NCBI GenBank assembly: GCA_004297735.1
Contig: SCTI01000002.1
Span: 350,180-414,179 of the forward strand
Direction: 5' to 3'
From: Patescibacteria group bacterium
Lineage (GTDB): Bacteria > Patescibacteriota > Saccharimonadia > UBA4664 > SCTI01
Length of the DNA stretch: 64,000 bases
This document shows positions 7,514 through 52,339 of the stretch, in pieces (position 1 is the stretch's first letter; each line of letters opens with the position of its first letter). The position numbers and the translations under genes are program-made. The notes beneath the pieces are model-generated. The model searched no databases and had not been told where the DNA came from. It saw only the letters and a program-made list of their open reading frames with translations.

Positions 7514-7732
7514 ATGGCTAAGTTACTTGACGATGTTTTATCGCAAGAGATGGATCGCAAAGAGTTTTTGGTGCGCGTCGGTGCCGGTGCCATGGCACTT
7601 GTTGGCATCTCGGGAATGATCAAGGGTCTTACCGGTACAATGGGCGGCGGCCAGGTTAACGGTTACGGATCGGGTTCCTACGGTGGGGTTGAGCCAAGCC
7701 AGCATCAAGCTGGTTCCACCAAACCTTTCTAG
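7514..7732 (+). CDS. small glycine-rich protein with Tat-like signal peptide (RKEFLV)
   Basis: aggag RBS. N-terminus MDRKEFLVRVGAGAMALVGISG resembles the (S/T)RRxFLK motif with an R-K variant and an h-region. The remainder is Gly-rich. Confidence 0.4.
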   Translation: MAKLLDDVLSQEMDRKEFLVRVGAGAMALVGISGMIKGLTGTMGGGQVNGYGSGSYGGVEPSQHQAGSTKPF

Positions 7733-7749
7733 AAGGTTCAAACTTTAAA

Positions 7750-7775
7750 AAGCCGGCAGTTAGCCGGTTTTTTTG
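7750..7775 (+). terminator. rho-independent terminator after the tat cluster
   Basis: ccggc-agtta-gccgg stem followed by a T7 run. Confidence 0.5.
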
Positions 7776-8002
7776 TGCTTACAAAACCCTTGCGCTTATA
7801 AAAATAAACGCTTATGCTATATATAGAGTTATAAATAATACAAAAGCTCTATATATGGTGTAAAAACACAAGCAAGGGGGATACATGGTTGAGGGGGAAA
7901 ACCAAAAGATACAAAATACAAACAAACAATCACGTGCCATTGGGAGGGCGCACGCGCCACCACAAATAAGCTAATATCGAACGCTAGTCAGATGTCAGAG
8001 CT

Positions 8003-8049
8003 AAAAGCCTCCAAACCTGGAGGCTTTTCATTTATTTTTAGGTCAGTAC
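8003..8049 (+). terminator. rho-independent terminator in the 300-bp AT-rich spacer
   Basis: aagcctcc-aaacct-ggaggctt stem followed by ttcatttattttt; no long ORF upstream of it. Confidence 0.4.
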
Positions 8050-8161
8050 CTTAATTTAATAATTATTTAATATTTGATTGTTATTATCCAAATACGATCA
8101 ATTGCTCTTTGGGCGAAAGATCCGCATAATATCAAATAATTGCGAGGGAAAGGCAAAAACC

Positions 8162-8860
8162 GTGCGCATATTGGTAATTGAAGACGATTCAGCGATGGTA
8201 GCGGCGATCCGGCGCAGTCTACAGTCGAACTACATTATCGATGTAGCGACAAATGGACACGATGGACTGCACTTGGCTGACATCAACCAGTATGACTTGG
8301 TAATGCTAGATCTTAGCTTGCCCGACTGCTCCGGCTTAACGGTTTGCAGTAAGTTGAGGGCAAATGGTTACACCACACCGATTTTGGTGGTAACCGCTCG
8401 TGCTGAGGTCCAGGACAAGGTTTCGCTGCTAGATGTAGGGGCTGATGACTACCTGACCAAGCCCTTTAGCTTAGACGAACTTAAGGCGCGTATTCGAGCG
8501 TTGCTCCGCCGCGAGGGCGGCACCAGCTACAACAGTCAAATTGTGGTGGGTGATCTGGTGGTTGATACCGCGAGTCGTAGCGTTTCGATGCGCGGCCAAT
8601 CGGTTCCGTTGCGTCGCAAAGAGTTTGATTTGCTAGAATATCTGGCTCGCAGTGCCGGCAAGACTCTGACCCGCCAAATGATCCTAGATCATGTTTGGGA
8701 GATGAATGACAACATTTGGACCAATGCAATTGATGTGCATATTAAATACTTGCGCGACAAAATCGACCGTCGGTTTGGTGTGCGGATGATACAGACGGTC
8801 CATGGAATTGGCTACAAGTTGGAATTACCGCAACCAGCAATCGGTGGCAAAAGGAGGTGA
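8162..8860 (+). CDS. OmpR-family response regulator
   Basis: GTG start after gggaaagg RBS. Receiver domain (VRILVIEDD...LVMLDLSLPD...TKPF) plus winged-helix C-terminus. Confidence 0.85.
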   Translation: MRILVIEDDSAMVAAIRRSLQSNYIIDVATNGHDGLHLADINQYDLVMLDLSLPDCSGLTVCSKLRANGYTTPILVVTARAEVQDKVSLLDVGADDYLTKPFSLDELKARIRALLRREGGTSYNSQIVVGDLVVDTASRSVSMRGQSVPLRRKEFDLLEYLARSAGKTLTRQMILDHVWEMNDNIWTNAIDVHIKYLRDKIDRRFGVRMIQTVHGIGYKLELPQPAIGGKRR

Positions 8861-32133: not shown

Positions 32134-32209
32134 TGGTGGGCCCGGCTGGACTTGAACCAGCGACCAATCGGTTATGAGCCGACTGCTCTAACCACTGAGC
32201 TACGGGCCC
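32134..32209 (-). tRNA. tRNA with CAU anticodon, probably tRNA-Ile2 (lysidine)
   Basis: Cloverleaf GGGCCCGTAGCTCAGTGGTTAGAGCAGTCGGCTCATAACCGATTGGTCGCTGGTTCAAGTCCAGCCGGGCCCACCA. From memory it closely resembles enterobacterial ileX. tilS is encoded 750 bp away. Confidence 0.7.
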
Positions 32210-32300
32210 GTGATAATACTCCATGATTGTACCAGGTTGCTAACCGCTTGCAATCACCCGCTACCTGTTAATGCGTCGTCATTTGTATTACGCTTAAGGT

Positions 32301-32684
32301 ATGCAACGCGTTCGAGACCAGCTTCGTAAACTACACGTAGGCACCATTATTGGCGTGATAGTGGCGCTGTATATTGGTGTATATCTGGTTCAAACTATTC
32401 AAAAGAATTATGAGCTGCAAAAGCAAATTGATGGCTTACAGCAGGATGTGGCCGGCCTCGAGGTTGAGCAGGATCAGTTAAAGTATAAGATTCAGTACTA
32501 CCAAACCGAGGCTTTTAAAGAAAAAGAGGCGAGGGAGAAGCTGGGCCTGCAGCAGCCCGGGGAGAGCGTACTGATTCTGCCAAAAGACAATGCTCCAGCC
32601 GAAGATGAACAGCAGCAAAAGCCGGCAGCAACCCAAAAATCAAACCTACAACAATGGATTGATTTCCTGATGGGCCGTTCTTGA
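32301..32684 (+). CDS. septum formation initiator family protein (FtsB/DivIC-like)
   Basis: N-terminal TM then coiled coil (LQKQIDGLQQDVAGLEVEQDQLKYKIQYYQT). Confidence 0.55.
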   Translation: MQRVRDQLRKLHVGTIIGVIVALYIGVYLVQTIQKNYELQKQIDGLQQDVAGLEVEQDQLKYKIQYYQTEAFKEKEAREKLGLQQPGESVLILPKDNAPAEDEQQQKPAATQKSNLQQWIDFLMGRS

Positions 32685-32720
32685 CTGTAGGGGTAAAAGT
32701 TGGTAATATGCTGGGTACGT

Positions 32721-32797
<77 letters not shown>

Positions 32798-32866
32798 AGA
32801 AATTATGGACGGACTCGATCAGCGATTGCTGGTCGTTTTGTTTGTCGGTACAATTGTTTGGTACAT

Positions 32867-32941
<75 letters not shown>

Positions 32942-37617: not shown

Positions 37618-38421
37618 ATGTCGACAAGCCTGTATGATATCACCATTGGTCAGCAGACCGAGCTTACCCGCATTTTAGCGGGTGCCGGGCTCGATGCTGA
37701 CATGGTTAAGCGGATTATCCGCAACCCTGATCTCGCTAAGAAGATGATCGGCGAGATCCGACAGACGATTCCGACAAACACCGACCTTTTCGCTTCGGCC
37801 GAGGACATCCTCACTAGGTTTCGCGAGCGGGCAGAGTTGCGGGGGTGGCCAATCACCGCCAAGCCAGGCGGACACCTAGCGCGCAACATGCCGAGGTTCC
37901 CGACCGACAGCCTCGCCGCGCTCTGTCTCAAGATCTGGCTCGGTTCGGCCGAGAAGACCGCCGAGGAGCTGTGGGCGTGGGTCGTCGATTCGCACCCCAA
38001 CTCGTGGCAGTATGGGGGTCTGAAGTTTGACCCCGAGTACTTCGAGCTCCTCGATCCCTCCCGCTACGGCGACGAGCCCAGTGTGGAGTGGGAGGTCATC
38101 GACCTCGGCGCTTACTGGGAGCCGGAGAGTGGCCGGACGGTCCTTGAGGTCCGTGAGCAGGCCGCTGCAAGGAGCGACGTTCTGGCCGATTTTGAAGTCC
38201 TGACGGTCGCGGCCCTACACCCGAACTATATCCAGGCCCAAGACGGGGAGAGCGTCCCTTACCTGGATGTGGCAGGTGTCAAAACCACGCTTCCCGGGGG
38301 TGAGCCCTGCGCACCGTACATCAGCTGGAACCAGTATCGCCGCGGGGTTGGGTTGCTCATGTCCACGGTGGACTACCGCAACGATGAGTGGGCCGCTCCA
38401 GTCATCCTGCAGGGGTCGTAA
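37618..38421 (+). CDS. hypothetical protein, high-GC / GC3-rich codon usage (probable horizontally acquired gene)
   Basis: 267-aa ORF with markedly higher GC than its flanks (ctc/gac/gag/gcc codons). No motif. Confidence 0.5.
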   Translation: MSTSLYDITIGQQTELTRILAGAGLDADMVKRIIRNPDLAKKMIGEIRQTIPTNTDLFASAEDILTRFRERAELRGWPITAKPGGHLARNMPRFPTDSLAALCLKIWLGSAEKTAEELWAWVVDSHPNSWQYGGLKFDPEYFELLDPSRYGDEPSVEWEVIDLGAYWEPESGRTVLEVREQAAARSDVLADFEVLTVAALHPNYIQAQDGESVPYLDVAGVKTTLPGGEPCAPYISWNQYRRGVGLLMSTVDYRNDEWAAPVILQGS

Positions 38422-46831: not shown

Positions 46832-47311
46832 ATGGAACAACAAAGTGTAGCGCCACCCGGCAATGAAATAAGTAGCTCAAATATCGAGCCGACCCCAGTA
46901 AAAGATAAGGAGATGTATGCCAATGAGCTGAGGGAGCTTTCTGACAAAGCATTAGCCGACCAGCTTAGCATTTTGGTTGATGGGTTTAATCGAATCCAAG
47001 ACTTTGATCCGGGCAAAAGTGAGCACATGGACTTGCGCAACCGGATGCTGGCAGCCCAGCAAGTGACTGGTGAGCGTGGCCTACTGGATGGCCTACCGCC
47101 AGCTTCACCGGATAAAGACACCGATGATGACCCGGGTATGTCGGGCAGTTACGCCCTCCGGGTTGGTGGCGGGGTGGATGTAGTTTCGGCAAAAGGTGAC
47201 ATACTTTCTAGTCGGCCCGCATCTACGGTTCATTCAAAAGAGGCTAGTACTCCCAAGCCCCTTGATTTACCGGATATCGATAACCGCGCTAGACCTCAGC
47301 AGAATGGATAG
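46832..47311 (+). CDS. hypothetical acidic protein (159 aa)
   Basis: ORF with RBS, no motif. Confidence 0.4.
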   Translation: MEQQSVAPPGNEISSSNIEPTPVKDKEMYANELRELSDKALADQLSILVDGFNRIQDFDPGKSEHMDLRNRMLAAQQVTGERGLLDGLPPASPDKDTDDDPGMSGSYALRVGGGVDVVSAKGDILSSRPASTVHSKEASTPKPLDLPDIDNRARPQQNG

Positions 47312-47378
47312 AGCCGATCGGCTGCAGATTGACCAAAGCCCCTATTTTAGGTATAGTAAGTCAGTTATTTACAGGTGT

Positions 47379-47455
47379 GGGCCCATAGCTCAGTTGGTTA
47401 GAGCGAGAGCCTTTTAAGCTCTGCGTCCTGGGTTCGAATCCCAGTGGGCCCTCCA
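47379..47455 (+). tRNA. tRNA-Lys (UUU)
   Basis: GGGCCCATAGCTCAGTTGGTTAGAGCGAGAGCCTTTTAAGCTCTGCGTCCTGGGTTCGAATCCCAGTGGGCCCTCCA. Confidence 0.85.
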
Positions 47456-47474
47456 GGAATTATAGGTCTAATAC

Positions 47475-47520
47475 ATAAAAGAGAAATGTCGCCTCCGCAG
47501 AACCACGGTGGCGACATTTC
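47475..47520 (-). terminator. rho-independent terminator for the minus-strand nuclease gene (possibly bidirectional)
   Basis: gaaatgtcgcc...ggcgacatttc 10-bp stem followed (minus strand) by a tctttt run. Confidence 0.5.
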
Positions 47521-47537
47521 AGTATCTATATTGTAAT

Positions 47538-47921
47538 CTACCGCTTACGAAAATCAAGTACTCCATGTGATTTAGTAATGACTTTGAGGTTTTTCGCACT
47601 TTTAATATCTGTGAACTCTTTTTCTAGTCTCACGATATTTACCTTGTCCGGCATTTTAGAATTACGTAGATCAAATATTATATTCTTTGATTGCCCCAGA
47701 GCTACTTTAAACGCGCGCTTTATTGTATGAGTGCTCTTGCCGGTCGGGCACTTTATTTCCCAGTCGATACCAGCCATTCTAATATCTGGAGTTCTCGCAC
47801 CTTTGCGCTGAACGGGTGGGAGTAGTTCAATATCGAAACCTTGATCTGTCAGGAATACGACCGTAGCATTTTCGTGCGTATGAAGAACGACGCCGTTTGG
47901 TGTTATTTTACCCTTTTTCAT
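47538..47921 (-). CDS. small PD-(D/E)xK nuclease-fold protein, Hjc/Mrr-like (127 aa), low-GC
   Basis: HENATVVFLTDQGFDIELLP...TPDIRMAGIDWEIKCPTGKST parallels the E...PD...(D/E)xK arrangement of archaeal Hjc-type resolvases and restriction-endonuclease-like nucleases. AT-rich codons. Confidence 0.45.
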   Translation of the reverse strand: MKKGKITPNGVVLHTHENATVVFLTDQGFDIELLPPVQRKGARTPDIRMAGIDWEIKCPTGKSTHTIKRAFKVALGQSKNIIFDLRNSKMPDKVNIVRLEKEFTDIKSAKNLKVITKSHGVLDFRKR

Positions 47922-48077
47922 AGCGGTCAGTATAACAGTTTGCCAAAATATTTCTTGAGTTGGAGTTAATAAAATGGCTATTTTGGTATGATTGTATAAA
48001 TAGCGTTGTATTGCGGCGAAAGGAATTAAGATGATGAGCGTAACAATTCAGCGGAAACTCATAGAGGTGTTTAGGGC

Positions 48078-48398
48078 ATGAGTTATAAAGTTGTCCGGTC
48101 AGAAGAAGCGGTGGCGCGAGAAATAGTACCGACCTATCATGCTCATAATTTCATCACCAAAGAAATTAGCCCAAATTTTTCATTAGCGGTTAATGAAGCG
48201 AAGGATCACCAAGAGACCGAGACCACCGAGTACGATCGGATTTATTATGTGATTGAGGGCATAATTGTGTTTGATTTTGATGGGGATCACGCTGAGGTAA
48301 AAGCCGGCGATAGCTGCTTTATTTCTAAAGGGACTACATACGATTTCGGTGGCACATTTAAGGCGGTGGTTGTGAACCAGCCGGCGTTTGGGGTTTAA
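48078..48398 (+). CDS. cupin-domain protein (106 aa)
   Basis: Cupin_2-like motifs (YYVIEG..., GDSCFISKGTTYDF). Confidence 0.5.
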   Translation: MSYKVVRSEEAVAREIVPTYHAHNFITKEISPNFSLAVNEAKDHQETETTEYDRIYYVIEGIIVFDFDGDHAEVKAGDSCFISKGTTYDFGGTFKAVVVNQPAFGV

Positions 48399-48480
48399 TT
48401 GCCAACTTGCCCTCCCTTCGCGTAGGGCGTAAGATGTTCTTCAGTTGCAGTGCAACCGTACACCTACCAAGGAGATGTAC

Positions 48481-48768
48481 ATGGAAGCGACTCTTGACGA
48501 TCTGGCCTCCGCGCTTTTGAGCGAGCGGCCGGATAGGCTCACCCCTGAGCTTGTCGATCTGGTTTGCCGCAGTCATCCCGAATCCGAGGACTTGTGCCTC
48601 AAGGGCGTTCGCCGCCAGCATGTCTTCCACTTGCTCGAGCGCATTCCGCGTTGGAACAAGAACTGGGAGGACGGGTACAAGAGGATGCACACCGACCTCC
48701 TCAAGTGGCTGCAGCAGCTGCGTGATGACCTGGCCATTCTCGAGGAGCCGGCTCCCGCCAAGGCCTGA
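48481..48768 (+). CDS. hypothetical protein (95 aa), high-GC islet
   Basis: aaggag RBS before MEATLDDL. The ORF-track entry starts at an upstream ATG (48445). GC3-rich codons. Confidence 0.4.
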   Translation: MEATLDDLASALLSERPDRLTPELVDLVCRSHPESEDLCLKGVRRQHVFHLLERIPRWNKNWEDGYKRMHTDLLKWLQQLRDDLAILEEPAPAKA

Positions 48769-48820
48769 TCGGGCCGTAGACTTGGGTCGAGGGGCGCACG
48801 ATGCTACCCCTCGATACCGA

Positions 48821-48845
48821 ACCGCCTATTGGGCGGTTTTTGCTT
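48821..48845 (+). terminator. rho-independent terminator
   Basis: ccgcc-tattg-ggcgg stem followed by tttttgctt. Confidence 0.45.
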
Positions 48846-48879
48846 ATGTTAGACTTTATTTAAGTATAAGGGTTGAGGT

Positions 48880-49146
48880 ATGTCTCCAGAAAAAGGTCCA
48901 GGGCCAGAGGATCGAGATTTAATTCCTGGTAGTGAAGAGGTAGAGCTTGAGGACAAAGCGAGAGAGGAGGGGCGCCTCCAGCGCATAGCTGGGTTAGAGG
49001 AGCGCTTAGAAGAGGCTTATGCTGGTATAGAGGAGGTCAGGGGGAGTGAATTACCGGATGCGGAGAAGAGCAAAAGAATACTCCAGTTTGAGGATGAGAT
49101 AAGGAACCTCGAGCGCCAACTAGATGAATTGGAGAGGACCGATTAG
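48880..49146 (+). CDS. hypothetical charged coiled-coil protein (88 aa)
   Basis: ggttgagg RBS; Glu/Arg-rich heptads. Confidence 0.4.
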   Translation: MSPEKGPGPEDRDLIPGSEEVELEDKAREEGRLQRIAGLEERLEEAYAGIEEVRGSELPDAEKSKRILQFEDEIRNLERQLDELERTD

Positions 49147-49152
49147 CCGTCA

Positions 49153-49749
49153 ATGAAAACTATATGTATTTTTGGCGATAGTATAACCTGGGGGCGCGGA
49201 TTGGAGTCCCGAGTCGGATGGGCCAATTTATTAAGAAACGAGCTCGAGGCCCAGGATGACTCAATTCACGTGTACGATCTTGGTATCGATGGCAACACTA
49301 CCCACGATTTGCTTGAACGGGTTCCTGGTGAGGCCAAGGTTCGCAAGCCAGACATTATTATTTGGGCGATTGGCGTGAACGATTCAGCCTATCGCAAGAC
49401 ACCTAATTATCCGTTAATAAAGGCTGAGCAGTTTGAGGATAATTTGGACACTTTATTTGAACTTGGGGCAGAAATGGCTCAAAAACAACTTTGTGTTGGC
49501 ATAGCCAAAGGTAGTGACGCCAATACAACGCCGCTTCCGGGCAGTACAACCGGTAAGTGTTACGTTAAGCAAAGAGTACGCGAGTATGACGAAATTATTA
49601 AGAGCGTCGCAATGGACACCGGCATTGAATATGTGAGCATTAGCTCGGTGCTAAGCGATAACGATTTTTATGATGGCTTGCATCCGAACGAAAAGGGCCA
49701 CAAAAAGATCTTTGAGCGGGTTTTACCGGCCGTCGAAGAGCTTTTATAG
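49153..49749 (+). CDS. SGNH/GDSL-family hydrolase
   Basis: Block I GDSITWG, block III GVNDS, block V DGLHPN. Confidence 0.75.
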   Translation: MKTICIFGDSITWGRGLESRVGWANLLRNELEAQDDSIHVYDLGIDGNTTHDLLERVPGEAKVRKPDIIIWAIGVNDSAYRKTPNYPLIKAEQFEDNLDTLFELGAEMAQKQLCVGIAKGSDANTTPLPGSTTGKCYVKQRVREYDEIIKSVAMDTGIEYVSISSVLSDNDFYDGLHPNEKGHKKIFERVLPAVEELL

Positions 49750-50001
49750 ATGTCAGACTTTAACTGGCTGATTGCAGCCGGCCTGCTTGTAGGGTATGCG
49801 GTAGTAGATGGTTTGTATGCCTACTACACGCTGGCGGTTGTGAAGCGGCAGGCGATGGCGGCGGCTTCAACTAGCTTTATTATGCATTTTATTTTGGCAG
49901 CCGGAGTATTTAGTTATACTCAAAACTTTTTATACACTATCCCTTTGGCGATAGGCTCATTTGTTGGAACTTACTTGGTTACAAAGTATATCCGACAGTA
50001 A
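49750..50001 (+). CDS. small membrane protein (83 aa)
   Basis: Start immediately after the stop of the SGNH hydrolase gene (TAGATG). Two TM helices. Confidence 0.4.
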   Translation: MSDFNWLIAAGLLVGYAVVDGLYAYYTLAVVKRQAMAAASTSFIMHFILAAGVFSYTQNFLYTIPLAIGSFVGTYLVTKYIRQ

Positions 50002-50062
50002 GCGTAATCTAGATTGTAAACCGGATCAGAAATCGTTAATCTCGGTTCGCTAATGTGTTGGT

Positions 50063-51505
50063 GTGGGTTTGAGTCGTCCGGTTCAGTTCGTGGTTTTGTT
50101 TGTGGCGCTAGTGGTCGGCATTATGGTCGGTCGAAGCGGCTACGCTGTTGAATTGATTTGGGTGGTGGGGTTGACGGGCGCGTGGTTATGTTTGGTGTTG
50201 GTGGGTTCACGCTTGGCCTTTGGTTTTTTGACGATGGCGTTTTTGCTATTTGGAGTTTGGCGGGGGTATCAAACGGACTTACCACGAACTTGGCTGGGCC
50301 AGCACTTGAATCAGAAGGCGGTTGTTGTGGGTACGATTGCCGATGATCCGGCCATGAATCAATATGGCAACGTCGAGTTTACCCTGAGCGGGGTTCAGCT
50401 TGACGGTGTCCGGGTGGCGCAGTCGATTAAGGTGAGACTGGCGAGCTATAAATCATTGCGGCGAGGCTATCGGGTGGTTGTGACCGGCAAGCTGGCCGAG
50501 ACTTTGGGTGCTGCGCCAGTACGGATCAGCTTTGCGCAAATTCAAGTTGTTTCAACCGAGATTGGCTGGCTGGAGCGATTGCGGGGCCGGTTCTTTATTG
50601 CCCTAAAGGAGGCGGTTCCCGAACCAATGTCGGGTTTTGCAGTCGGCATATTGGTGGGCGCACGGGCGGTGATGACCGACGAGCTGCAGCGGGCCCTATC
50701 GGTGGCGGGCCTAACTCATTTGGTGGCGGTTTCTGGATATAATTTAACCATTTTGGCGCAGGCCGCTCAGCGAATATGCGGTCGGTTTTCTTTGTTTGTA
50801 GCCACCGCCGTAACACTGTGGTTGGTGGCCGGCTTTGTTGGTATTGCCGGCTTTAGCGCCAGCATAATTCGAGCTTCGATGGTGGCGGGCTTGGGTCTGC
50901 TCATAACCTATTACGGCTATGAGGCGCGGCCAGCTACAATTTTGGCTGTGCCTGGGATATTAACTCTTGCCTGGAATCCCGACTATTTAATTAGAGACAT
51001 GGGCTGGCAGTTATCGTTTTTGGCCTTTTTTGGCGTCTTGGTTTTTGCCCCTTTACTTGAGCAGCGCTTAATTAAAAATCCAACCATGCTCAAATCATTA
51101 TTTATTGAATCTACGTCCGCTCACATAATTACCCTACCTTTAATTATGTGGCGTTTCGAAACGGTGTCGGTAGTGGCACCGTTGGTCAATGTGATCATCC
51201 TGCCACTGGTACCGCTGGCCATGCTGTTGAGTTTTATTACTGGACTACTTGGTATGGCTCATACCGGGTTAACGGCGGTGGCGGCCTGGCCCACCACCGG
51301 TTTGCTGTCGCTAATTATTGCGGCAGCGATGACCGCCAAGCAGCTACCGTTTGCGAGCGTTAGTCTTGGTGCGTCACCGTGGCAGGTTGCGGCGGCTTAT
51401 GGGTTGATAGCGGCAGTTACGTGGTTTCTTTACCGTGGCAGCCAGGGGGTGCCGCAGGTGGATAGTAATCGCTTGGCGGGGACGGTGGTGGCGAAAGGTA
51501 GGTAG
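50063..51505 (+). CDS. comEC: ComEC/Rec2-family DNA uptake channel (no metallo-beta-lactamase domain)
   Basis: GTG start. DUF4131-like N-terminal region and competence domain (LTHLVAVSGYNLTILA), polytopic. Confidence 0.75.
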   Translation: MGLSRPVQFVVLFVALVVGIMVGRSGYAVELIWVVGLTGAWLCLVLVGSRLAFGFLTMAFLLFGVWRGYQTDLPRTWLGQHLNQKAVVVGTIADDPAMNQYGNVEFTLSGVQLDGVRVAQSIKVRLASYKSLRRGYRVVVTGKLAETLGAAPVRISFAQIQVVSTEIGWLERLRGRFFIALKEAVPEPMSGFAVGILVGARAVMTDELQRALSVAGLTHLVAVSGYNLTILAQAAQRICGRFSLFVATAVTLWLVAGFVGIAGFSASIIRASMVAGLGLLITYYGYEARPATILAVPGILTLAWNPDYLIRDMGWQLSFLAFFGVLVFAPLLEQRLIKNPTMLKSLFIESTSAHIITLPLIMWRFETVSVVAPLVNVIILPLVPLAMLLSFITGLLGMAHTGLTAVAAWPTTGLLSLIIAAAMTAKQLPFASVSLGASPWQVAAAYGLIAAVTWFLYRGSQGVPQVDSNRLAGTVVAKGR

Positions 51506-51595
51506 TTCGCCTTTTGTACGTTTTAACAGGTGAGTGGTATAATTATAGTATTCAGTTATCCACAACTCAAACGACGGCAGAAGGAGTAAACAAAC

Positions 51596-52339
51596 ATGTC
51601 CGGACACTCAAAATGGCACTCAATTAAACATCAAAAAGCGGCCGCTGACGCCAAGCGCGGAGCAGCGTTTACTAAGTTGGCTAACGCCATTGCGCTGGCT
51701 ACTAAAAAGGGCGGTAGCGATCCGGAGACTAATTTTTCGTTGCGCCTGGCAATTCAAAAAGCCAAAGCCTCTAACATGCCGGCCGCTAACATTGAGCGCT
51801 CAATTAAGCGTGGCTCGGGTCAGTTGGGCGGAGATCAGATTGAAGAGATTACTTATGAGGGCTACGGCCCGGGCGGGGTGGCGCTCATTATTGAGGTGGC
51901 GACCGATAATCGCAATCGCACCGGCCCTGAGGTCCGCACCGCCTTAAGTAAGTCGGGTGGTCGCATGGCCGATGCCGGCTCGGTGGCGTACCAGTTTGAC
52001 TACCGTGGAACTCTTCGCCTAAAGCCAAGTGACATCGAGGCTGCCACGTTGGACGCGATTGAGGCCGGGGCGGTTGATGTGGATGAGGATGAGGACGAGC
52101 TGATCGTATATACCAACCCCAAGGAACTCAATGCGGTTCAGACCAAGTTGACCGAAATGGGTTACACGCCAGAGTCGGCCGAGCTGGCTTACATTCCTAA
52201 AAACACCATCGTAATCAGCGATCAAAAAACCGCCCAACAGATTATTAAGCTGATGGACACGCTTGACGATATGGATGACGTTACTGCAACTCATGCAAAC
52301 TTTGATTTCGATGAAGAGACGGCCAAGGCTTTGGCATGA
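51596..52339 (+). CDS. YebC/PmpR-family DNA-binding regulatory protein
   Basis: MSGHSKWHSIKHQKAAADAKRG N-terminus. Confidence 0.9.
   Translation: MSGHSKWHSIKHQKAAADAKRGAAFTKLANAIALATKKGGSDPETNFSLRLAIQKAKASNMPAANIERSIKRGSGQLGGDQIEEITYEGYGPGGVALIIEVATDNRNRTGPEVRTALSKSGGRMADAGSVAYQFDYRGTLRLKPSDIEAATLDAIEAGAVDVDEDEDELIVYTNPKELNAVQTKLTEMGYTPESAELAYIPKNTIVISDQKTAQQIIKLMDTLDDMDDVTATHANFDFDEETAKALA

Follow-up and report, generated by a model that had tools for sequence, protein, structure and literature searches.

The DNA between a tRNA-Lys gene and comEC raises two questions: how its patchwork of low- and high-GC genes came about, and what part is played by the small nuclease gene at its left end. 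The interval was analysed within a 64-kb window (the whole stretch of DNA under study). Its left anchor is tRNA-Lys(ttt) (47379..47455, + strand; found by ARAGORN and, with 70.8 bits, by the Rfam tRNA model), and its right anchor is ComEC (50063..51505, +; Competence and DUF4131 domains), with which the core backbone resumes. Between them lie the six ORFs listed in the initial annotation, in the order described there: a stand-alone PD-(D/E)xK nuclease ORF of 127 aa on the minus strand (47538..47921), belonging to Pfam CdiA_C (PF18451); a divergent cupin of 106 aa (48078..48398, +; Cupin_2 and EutQ matches); a GC3-rich 95-aa ORF (48481..48768, +), which starts with ATG at 48481 after the ribosome-binding site AAGGAG and would be 107 aa long from an alternative TTG at 48445; a charged, coiled-coil-like 88-aa ORF (48880..49146, +), here called cc88; an SGNH/GDSL hydrolase of 198 aa (49153..49749, +; Lipase_GDSL_2, E = 4e-25); and a hydrophobic 83-aa ORF (49750..50001, +). 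The hairpin/terminator reported 3′ of the nuclease gene (47483-47520) and the terminator reported after the GC-rich ORF (48819-48839) are both present.

The alternation of low- and high-GC genes was borne out, GC3 running through 0.38, 0.45, 0.77 and about 0.48 along the interval, as compared to about 0.58 in the backbone. The GC/GC3 values were 0.41/0.38 for the nuclease, 0.44/0.45 for the cupin, 0.61/0.77 for the 95-aa ORF, 0.51/0.49 for cc88, 0.46/0.49 for the SGNH hydrolase and 0.44/0.48 for the 83-aa ORF, with respect to 0.53-0.54/0.57-0.59 in the backbone genes (DnaJ, ComEC, YebC, RuvC and RuvA). GC was below 0.42 in just 11 of the approximately 425 300-nt segments of the 64-kb stretch, those at 47401-47851 included. 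The 95-aa ORF matched only itself among 5.8e9 proteins and gave no Pfam, NCBIfam, PADLOC or PHROG match; profile searches returned no significant family for cc88 (PADLOC included) and none for the 83-aa ORF. With PADLOC, the proteins of the island had no matches except noise-level coiled-coil ones, and with Rfam nothing was found in the remainder of the island beyond the tRNA and the hairpin.

When the interval was compared among relatives, as the initial annotation had proposed, its gene order proved not to be conserved between flanks that are. The tRNA-Lys and comEC genes are syntenic down to 50% ComEC identity, with an unchanged backbone location of tRNA-Lys in L002-4, L095, L096 and L097, and ComEC syntenic with YebC-RuvC-RuvA in all relatives. 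The distance between the two anchors ranges from 446 bp to 5.8 kb, and the genes enclosed differ. The nuclease and the cupin (79% identical and syntenic) are common to the window and L002-4, whereas the 95-aa ORF, cc88 and the SGNH hydrolase are common to the window and L095. Homologs of cc88 (49-58% identity) lie directly 5′ of the SGNH gene or comEC in L002/3 and L095; the SGNH hydrolase is present in L003 (86%) and L095 (82%) and absent in L002/L004, L096 and L097; the 83-aa ORF has no homolog in L002-4 or L095-97 and is unique to the window genome among the relatives examined. In relatives the interval holds the housekeeping lipid genes plsY, cdsA and UbiA, a block that was not found relocated within the 64-kb window. 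The L095 homolog of the 95-aa ORF is 37% identical, equally GC3-rich and located at the same position, which weakens the view of this ORF as a recent high-GC import.

We are confident that the tRNA-Lys-comEC interval is a recombination/indel hotspot in this Saccharibacteria-like lineage. The interval is composed of one- to six-gene modules gained and lost independently, and its compositional mosaicism reflects traits of the gene families rather than recent import. Small self-contained modules come and go at the hotspot without an integrase, and a plausible route for their turnover is natural competence followed by recombination between the conserved homologous flanks; the interval offers a clean case, in a small genome with natural competence, of plasticity that needs no integrase. 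In the initial annotation the hotspot had been tentatively coupled to a decayed island next to tRNA-Lys; the variable gene content between conserved flanks stands, the island is unlikely. The absence of an integrase and of an attachment repeat, also noted there, was confirmed: no integrase domain was detected either in the ORFs of the interval or among those from DnaK to RuvB, a search of the 64-kb window for the 3′-terminal 26 nt of tRNA-Lys (up to 3 mismatches) gave no further copy, and positions 47300-52000 contain no suitable direct repeat. On these repeat searches, an att site within the window was rejected.

The 127-aa protein shows the PD-(D/E)xK arrangement previously recognised in it (E17...P45-D46...D53-W-E55-I-K57); the catalytic residues are conserved and the ExK lysine is canonical. 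It matches PF18451 with 44.3 bits (cutoff 26.6; E = 2.1e-11) over profile positions 1-80 of 81, its nearest relatives are the CdiA-CT tRNase toxins of Burkholderia, and there is little doubt that it is a CdiA_C-type PD-(D/E)xK nuclease. These similarities replace the Hjc/Mrr label that it had received and exclude an Hjc-type resolvase; among the roles once considered (toxin, restriction-like effector or resolvase), the first is favoured by the toxin-like relatives and the last is dropped. By homology, the protein would be an active nuclease, perhaps a tRNase, with RNA or DNA as its substrate. The family comprises 664 clusters at 50% identity, and in the best 150 of these 664 representatives the length is nearly always 125-135 aa.

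The closest known systems are CdiA-CT(II) of Burkholderia pseudomallei 1026b with its CdiI (PDB 4G6V), CdiA-CT E479 (5J4A) and the PF18451 family. CdiA-CT is the C-terminal tip of the giant CdiA in Gram-negative CDI loci, whereas the protein described here is free-standing, 127 aa long with its own start, retains the canonical ExK lysine and occurs in Saccharibacteria and Actinomyces without CdiB, an entry domain or a cdiI-like gene. In fact, no cdiB or cdiI adjoins the nuclease gene here or in the 26 other contexts, and what is conserved beside it is an RNA hairpin, not a gene for an immunity protein. Stand-alone cassettes of polymorphic toxins (Tox-REase; Zhang et al., 2012), which are spares for recombination located, along with immunity genes, downstream of a full-length polymorphic toxin, resemble it in being small free-standing domains of restriction-endonuclease fold with E, D, ExK and Q motifs (PMC3482391); they differ in that neither a parent toxin nor an immunity gene accompanies our nuclease in the 27 contexts, and that its gene has a putative promoter to itself. 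The neighbours are tRNA-Lys and the cupin in the window, and unrelated genes in the 26 other contexts. The cupin is absent from every other nuclease context and from L095-97 and is therefore not a conserved partner; as an immunity protein it was rejected, since it accompanies the nuclease solely in the window/L002-4 lineage.

Each intact nuclease copy carries a hairpin 3′ of the gene. In the window this element (47477..47520, - strand, found as an inverted repeat) consists of a 38-nt hairpin (47483-47520) and a T-run (47477-47482), and in gene orientation the hairpin reads GAAATGTCGCCACCG-TGGTTCTG-CGGAGGCGACATTTC, with a 15-bp stem, one A.A mismatch and a fold energy of -31 kcal/mol (z = -4.1). 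We distinguish three hairpin types, one per protein clade, the one in the window being type A; a U-run follows the hairpin in all of them. The stem covaries at 9 of 15 pairs, a value reached in 0 of 500 shuffles, and wobble pairs fall on one strand (10 G.U on the sense strand vs. 0 on the other). In clade A, the 8-nt loop is invariant (100%) and the inner 22 nt are 94.5% identical, as compared to 36% identity at third positions of the coding sequence, where synonymous sites are saturated. The hairpin is in all likelihood a selected sense-strand RNA element. It has no matching family in Rfam (E up to 10), and the region contains no tandem repeats, just this one hairpin 3′ of the nuclease gene. 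An overlapping ORF or small peptide concealed in the hairpin was rejected, as no alternative frame is open across all 54 modules; the ATG inside the hairpin of the window occurs in only 12 of 41 type-A copies.

Two promoter-like elements belong to the module. The putative -10 box of the nuclease gene, TATACT (47929..47934, -, read from the sequence), lies 7 nt before the ATG, and a TATACT/TATAAT box is found 7-9 nt 5′ of the start codon in many unrelated contexts; this spacing implies that the nuclease mRNA would be leaderless. An internal promoter, P2 (TTGATT-16 nt-TACAAT, 47530..47557, -), was detected by a promoter scan across the last codons and the stop of the nuclease gene, with its -10 box ending 9 nt before the 5′ G of the hairpin. 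When promoters were counted at positions anchored on the hairpin motif, the sigma-70-like geometry TTGnnn-N16-18-TAnnnT preceded the hairpin in 47 of 51 distinct loci, as compared to 5.1% of control intervals; the spacer was 17 nt in 41, and the distance from the -10 box to the hairpin was 8-10 nt in all. Part of the conservation of the -35 box may represent coding constraint, because this box overlaps the conserved L-D-F codons. Transcription from P2 and a free small RNA are predicted.

Modules of this kind, about 0.5 kb long, are found across phyla, in Saccharibacteria and in Actinomyces, bacteria on which such epibionts live; the Actinomyces carriers include A. naeslundii/massiliensis strains. 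Their distribution is patchy and some copies are decayed; hairpin remnants persist where the nuclease gene has decayed. No relatives were present in plasmid or IMG/VR collections, and among phages the sole match was a C-terminal domain, 29.5% identical, of Streptococcus phage Javan573; therefore, these searches provide no evidence of a phage- or plasmid-borne module.

We favour a two-layer explanation, to which we assign a probability of roughly 0.45: a hotspot, and in it a mobile nuclease/hairpin-RNA cassette whose RNA would be the antidote. The cassette of about 0.5 kb, made of a leaderless-mRNA promoter, the nuclease gene, a second promoter in its last codons and the 38-nt hairpin with its U-run, moves from one genome to another, across phyla as well. 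Its layout suggests that the hairpin would end the nuclease mRNA and would also be made alone, as an RNA of about 45 nt. The nuclease would act as a toxin, its most likely activity being that of an RNase or tRNase, and the cognate hairpin RNA would bind it and keep it inactive, doing for it what the CdiI protein does for CdiA-CT; together they would form a toxin/RNA-antitoxin pair akin to type III, or an abortive-infection module. Toxicity, an RNA substrate, transcription from P2 and an inhibitory RNA-protein interaction are what we infer from sequence comparisons. We lean slightly towards the hairpin RNA being a specific ligand of the nuclease, and suggest more tentatively that it may act as an antitoxin. 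It is a still more tentative proposal that the modules represent an unrecognised TA/defence class, in which a CdiA-CT-like (t)RNase would be neutralised by a single ~45-nt hairpin RNA made from a promoter in the final codons of the toxin gene, with at least three co-diversified protein-RNA types, in a 0.5-kb cassette that spreads preferentially beside tRNA genes and occurs both in epibiotic Saccharibacteria and in the Actinomyces that they colonise.

With type III TA systems (ToxIN, CptIN, TenpIN, and AbiF-like RNA-regulated systems) the module would share a nuclease toxin with a cis-encoded structured RNA, abundant in its own right, that would bind the toxin directly and neutralise it, a terminator between or after the units, and a compact, mobile and patchy occurrence. 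Type III antitoxins are non-coding RNAs encoded beside the toxin; the candidate here would be the conserved, covarying sense-strand hairpin with a promoter-like element that always adjoins the nuclease gene. The differences also weigh against an antitoxin. Type III antitoxins are upstream tandem repeats processed by the toxin and their toxins have the ToxN/AbiQ-type fold (ToxN/CptN/TenpN), whereas here a single downstream hairpin with its own internal promoter accompanies a PD-(D/E)xK protein, an architecture unlike every known type III system. Moreover, no PADLOC model matches, TA or Abi modules are not usually so scarce in phage, plasmid and IMG/VR collections, and the copy in the window has kept its syntenic place ever since its lineage parted from L002-4, with no sign of being active.

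This stable inheritance, together with the lack of an immunity gene and of any defence-library match, would suit a non-toxic housekeeping or repair nuclease, in no need of an antidote, whose hairpin is a cis element only, i.e., an intrinsic terminator and 3′ stabiliser, to which the nuclease may bind in autoregulation. The position at the mRNA 3′ end and the U-run in all types agree with it, much of the selection could stem from a strong terminator with a further role in mRNA stability or autoregulation, and the tracking of protein clade by hairpin type is also expected from plain co-inheritance of adjacent DNA. We consider this reading unlikely, although it deserves serious weight: in terminators one rarely sees an 8-nt loop that never varies, a retained A.A mismatch and an inner stem 94.5% identical, all against saturated synonymous sites, a conserved promoter aimed at the hairpin alone would have no role, a patchy, mobile distribution with decayed copies misfits a housekeeping gene, and the nearest relatives are toxins.

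A selfish mobile element, in which the protein would be a DNA-acting homing or site-specific endonuclease and the hairpin its DNA recognition or recombination site, would account for insertion near tRNA genes: in 10 of 27 distinct contexts a tRNA is found no more than 400 nt away from the module, vs. 3.4% of other positions. The unit of 560 bp common to different phyla is sharply bounded, the internally deleted copy L019:730 has kept the end of the unit, and DNases occur elsewhere in the PD-(D/E)xK fold (PMC9086364). Nevertheless, this reading is improbable: the strand bias of the wobble pairs favours RNA over duplex or either-strand DNA, no matching element was found at the 5′ end of the module and no target-site duplication or repeat around it, nearly all genomes contain a single copy, and the adjoining tRNAs, of nine different kinds, may lie on either side, which fits tRNA flanks that are simply permissive or recombinogenic.

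Slightly less probable again is that the RNA activates the nuclease or gives it specificity, as a cofactor or subunit and not as an inhibitor, for instance by pairing its loop, in a defence system, with a target RNA such as a tRNA 3′ end. Strict gene-RNA linkage, a dedicated promoter and hairpins that differ by clade are compatible with any obligate partnership of RNA and protein, and the clade-A loop contains UGGU (read from the sequence), complementary to ACCA, which might allow such pairing; a tRNA T-arm or CCA-pairing reading of this loop is a tentative lead. Types B and C lack the UGGU motif, though, a nearly fully paired 38-nt hairpin leaves little guide sequence, and hairpin-only remnants fit an antidote more easily than a cofactor. 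Least probable of all is that an integrase once inserted the entire 2.6 kb at tRNA-Lys as an island that has since decayed: like tRNA-linked islands and hotspots the stretch lies at the 3′ end of a tRNA, is atypical in composition and varies in presence between close relatives, but it has neither an integrase or remnant among the genes from DnaK to RuvB nor, within the 64 kb searched, bounding attL/attR repeats of the tRNA 3′ end, its components differ in history (nuclease and cupin; 95-aa ORF, cc88 and SGNH; 83-aa ORF) and do not form one element, its composition is intrinsic to the gene families, and housekeeping lipid genes occupy the same interval in relatives.

If the hairpin is an antidote, type III-like systems would gain a new toxin fold and a minimal architecture, and control of a CDI toxin domain would pass from an immunity protein to RNA. 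The large, unannotated family is found in the little-understood Patescibacteria, in which few defence or addiction systems are recognised, and its three natural protein-RNA pairs would offer a compact model in which to study RNA-protein recognition. The 24-nt core of the type-A hairpin is invariant across five unrelated contexts, Actinomyces included, and its identity in oral Actinomyces points to gene flow between the epibiont phylum and its hosts.

The window comes from a Saccharibacteria-like (Patescibacteria) MAG, and the 127-aa protein encoded next to tRNA-Lys (47538-47921, minus strand) is present at NCBI as EPO04_03770, 'Patescibacteria group bacterium'. This protein passes the gathering threshold of Pfam CdiA_C PF18451 (44.3 bits as compared to 26.6), and its only PDB sequence match is 4g6v_A. 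In an alignment of 29 homologs, residues H16, D46, W54, E55, K57, Q77, S78 and D84 were invariant, and E17 was kept in at least 90%. Judged by its residues, the nuclease is catalytically intact and CdiA-CT-like, and its sequence carries the features of both the CdiA_C family and the PD-(D/E)xK superfamily. The initial annotation had proposed an Hjc/Mrr-like PD-(D/E)xK protein; the PD-(D/E)xK part was right, while the specific kinship is instead with CDI tRNase toxins. An exhaustive HMMER scan yielded 664 cluster representatives of the family (203 at E<=1e-10), and almost all of the best 150 of these 664 are 125-135 aa long. Since the protein is free-standing, without a larger CdiA, and no cdiB- or cdiI-like neighbour was found in any genomic context examined, the locus is not a CDI system, both a CdiA C-terminal toxin and cdiB/cdiI neighbours being defining features of such systems. 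A distant copy of the nuclease domain (29.5% identity) forms the C-terminus of a 490-aa protein encoded beside the portal gene of Streptococcus phage Javan573 (gene 0034, L091:1430-2902), and PHROG 13257, annotated as 'head maturation protease', aligns with the window protein at profile positions 286-372 (E=3.5e-9). In many contexts, a TATACT/TATAAT box is located only 7-9 nt 5' of the nuclease ATG (window 47929-47934, minus strand; also in loci L005, L013, L017, L082 and L083), with no Shine-Dalgarno sequence, which suggests a leaderless mRNA.

The gene is followed by a 38-nt hairpin (47483-47520, minus strand), to which no Rfam family corresponds. Its 24-nt core, TCGCCACCGTGGTTCTGCGGAGGC, occurs once in the window and is invariant over five contexts, Actinomyces included, with unrelated flanks and coding DNA at 68-83% identity. 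When the 22-nt core was scanned against 185,579 species genomes, 10 loci were obtained, nine in Saccharibacteria and one in Nakamurella. The latter is an exact match (L011:2818-2839, contig CBDFHS010000010.1 of a Nakamurella sp. MAG) that falls within a CDS for a histidine-kinase-like protein, with no nuclease gene nearby; it is probably fortuitous and favoured by the GC content of this high-GC actinobacterium, although the expected number of such matches was about 0.1. Six of the 10 copies lie 3' of an intact nuclease gene, and the other Saccharibacteria copies lie 3' of remnants. In three Nanosynbacter species representatives (L016:344-365, L018:3372-3393 and L020:1841-1862), beside RhuM-like gene fragments, nothing is left of the module but its last codons, the -10-like (promoter-like) box and the hairpin. 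One Saccharibacteria contig (L019:730-751 and 2619-2640) contains both an intact module and a second copy, in which an internal deletion joins 'IELVPPSQLKG' to the 3' region. These remnants fit an orphan RNA element retained after loss of the nuclease.

A metagenome scan by protein added 70 further loci, and each intact nuclease gene has one of three hairpin types after it: type A, GAAATGTCGCCACCG-TGGTTCTG-CGGAGGCGACATTTC; type B, GAAATGCGACCT-CT-GCT-GTAT-AGC-TC-AGGTCGCATTTC; and type C, which is bulged and longer. Hairpin-only remnants exist, and intact genes without a hairpin were absent among the loci examined, so that in these sequences the linkage is obligate for the gene. With zero exceptions, each of the three types belongs to its own monophyletic clade of the protein, the clades counting 36, 7 and 6 distinct proteins.

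The hairpin appears to be under strong selection as RNA in the sense direction. Covariation bears out the stem: type A has both sides altered in 9 of its 15 pairs, a level reached by 0 of 500 shuffles, and 92.8% of its cells pair, with slid controls pairing at 34-60%; type B has 4 of its 15 pairs altered in this way, with pairing in 100% of cells. All wobbles (10/10) are G.U on the sense strand of the gene and A.C pairs are zero, which indicates that the sense RNA is the selected structure. Over the 601 clade-A pairs whose amino-acid identity is 80% or less, nucleotide identity is 36% at third codon positions and 26-27% in the flanks, as compared to 81% for the hairpin, 94.5% for its inner 22 nt and 100% for the loop. 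Hidden coding as the cause of this conservation was ruled out by an overlapping-frame check. Computationally, there is a strong case that this RNA is selected and linked to the protein.

A sigma-70-like element (TTGnnn-N16-18-TAnnnT) overlies the last codons and stop codon of the gene in 47 of 51 distinct loci, as compared to 5.1% of control intervals. A spacer of 17 nt is found in 41 loci, and the -10 box ends 8-10 nt ahead of the 5' G of the hairpin wherever the element is present; distances of 17, 20, 23 or 35 nt between the stop codon and the -35 box leave this geometry unchanged. In the window, the promoter scan gave TTGATT-16-TACAAT (47557-47530), and the sole possible product of this predicted promoter is the hairpin with its U-run, about 45 nt.

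The nuclease has no protein partner in the contexts examined. By analogy with its relatives it would be toxic, probably an RNase or tRNase, and the hairpin RNA would bind and inhibit it, following a type III-like toxin/RNA-antitoxin logic with RNA in place of CdiI. The invariant clade-A loop, UGGUUCUG (47498-47505, minus strand), holds GGUUC, a motif of tRNA T-arms, and UGGU, which could pair with the ACCA at tRNA 3' ends; the nearest structural relatives of the nuclease cleave tRNA in the acceptor stem or T-loop. A possible tie between these motifs and tRNA cleavage is suggestive, but the motifs are absent from types B and C. The chief alternative gives the hairpin a role only as terminator, stabiliser or autoregulatory site for an enzyme that is not toxic; against it stand the dedicated promoter, the invariance of the loop and a patchy distribution that includes decayed copies. 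Action at the DNA level in a mobile element is disfavoured, considering that G.U pairs occur on the sense strand only and that there is no 5' counterpart and no target duplication. The cassette may work like a type III TA system, although it falls outside the known type III families, whose toxin fold and repeat architecture do not match. No description of the nuclease-hairpin pairing was found in the literature and no PADLOC model matched it. This cassette is the interesting part of the locus, and its functional reading is directly testable.

Sequence comparison also points to mobility of the cassette. At 86% identity (relatives L002 to L004) the nuclease gene is still syntenic with the window, whereas at 78-79% it is already relocated, lying between tRNA-Tyr and tRNA-Thr in L092 and between RibD_C and ASCH genes in L094. 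In Actinomyces (proteins under the NCBI names A. naeslundii and A. massiliensis) the module occupies a 48-49% GC trough in a locus otherwise mostly at about 60-74%, and is about 81% identical in nucleotides to Saccharibacteria copies across a bounded 560-bp unit. There (L008:5833-8545) the setting is defence-island-like, with a RhuM gene at a distance of about 1.1 kb and an ApeA-HEPN gene also in the vicinity. RhuM-like fragments accompany the Nanosynbacter remnants as well, a hint that a larger block may have passed between epibiont and host (L008 vs. L012, L014 and L018). A tRNA gene lies within 400 nt of the module in 10 of 27 distinct contexts, as compared to 3.4% of other positions (p=1.6e-7, computed with 9 contexts, leaving out the window, where tRNA-Lys begins 86 nt beyond the gene); as the true intergenic background is above 3.4%, this p overstates an enrichment that is nonetheless real. 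Nine different tRNAs adjoin the module, on either side.

In the window, all ORFs listed in the initial annotation were recovered at the same coordinates, family assignment upheld the cupin, SGNH hydrolase and ComEC, and the alternating composition was borne out. GC3 by gene goes from 0.38 (nuclease) through 0.45 (cupin) and 0.48-0.49 (the charged 88-aa ORF, SGNH and the 83-aa ORF) to 0.77 (95-aa ORF), as compared to 0.57-0.59 in the backbone (DnaJ, ComEC, YebC, RuvC and RuvA). This oddity does not date recent import. Across hosts, the nuclease gene exceeds its flanks in AT content at 52 of 55 loci (mean difference 8.2 points). The 95-aa ORF (48481-48768) matched only itself among 5.8 billion proteins, and tblastn revealed a homolog (37% identity) in the same position in relative L095 (7231-7539), both having GC3 of about 0.77-0.78 where genes of these genomes average about 0.58. 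This small, fast-evolving protein keeps a stable anomaly, for which codon selection, overlapping RNA structure and repeated import are possibilities.

The interval was compared by anchoring on the core genes that flank tRNA-Lys(ttt) (47379-47455) and comEC. The backbone HrcA-GrpE-DnaK-DnaJ-169aa ... ComEC-YebC-RuvC-RuvA-(RuvB) and the position of the tRNA are kept in L002 to L004, L095, L096 and L097, whose ComEC is 78, 77, 57 and 50% identical to that of the window, respectively. Between them, the window has 2,607 bp (nuclease, cupin, 95aa, cc88, SGNH, 83aa); L002 and L004 have 5,254 bp (nuclease, cupin, cdsA, plsY, 224, 146, UbiA, 230, cc86); L003 has 5,823 bp, with SGNH in addition; L095 has 4,737 bp (239, 142, hydrolase 187, 102, cc89, SGNH, 114 and two minus-strand ORFs), without nuclease or cupin; and L096 and L097 have 446 and 832 bp, with single ORFs of 103 and 218 aa. 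Gene content thus differs in every relative lineage compared and no gene order conserved in distant relatives was found, so that the proposed hotspot stands, as ordinary biology that is now well documented. The contents are not one single element, since components differ in which relatives carry them: nuclease and cupin are common to the window and L002 to L004, 95aa, cc88 and SGNH to the window and L095, SGNH alone is the indel separating L002 from L003, and the 83-aa ORF is in the window only. No integrase domain occurs among interval or flank genes, the tRNA-Lys 3' end has no second copy in the 64-kb window, and 47300-52000 has no suitable direct repeat, in agreement with the initial annotation; a classical decayed integrase island lacks positive evidence of any kind.

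The plsY, cdsA and UbiA-family genes of the close relatives, with three ORFs of no known function (L002:3554-7600), were not found within the 64-kb window, and are either elsewhere in its genome or lost from its lineage. Two further strong composition outliers are seen in the window, at about 7.7-8.2 kb (7651-8250, GC 0.35-0.42) and about 37.7-38.4 kb (37651-38400, GC 0.61-0.65), and three tRNA-Met genes are clustered at 32134-32941, on both strands.
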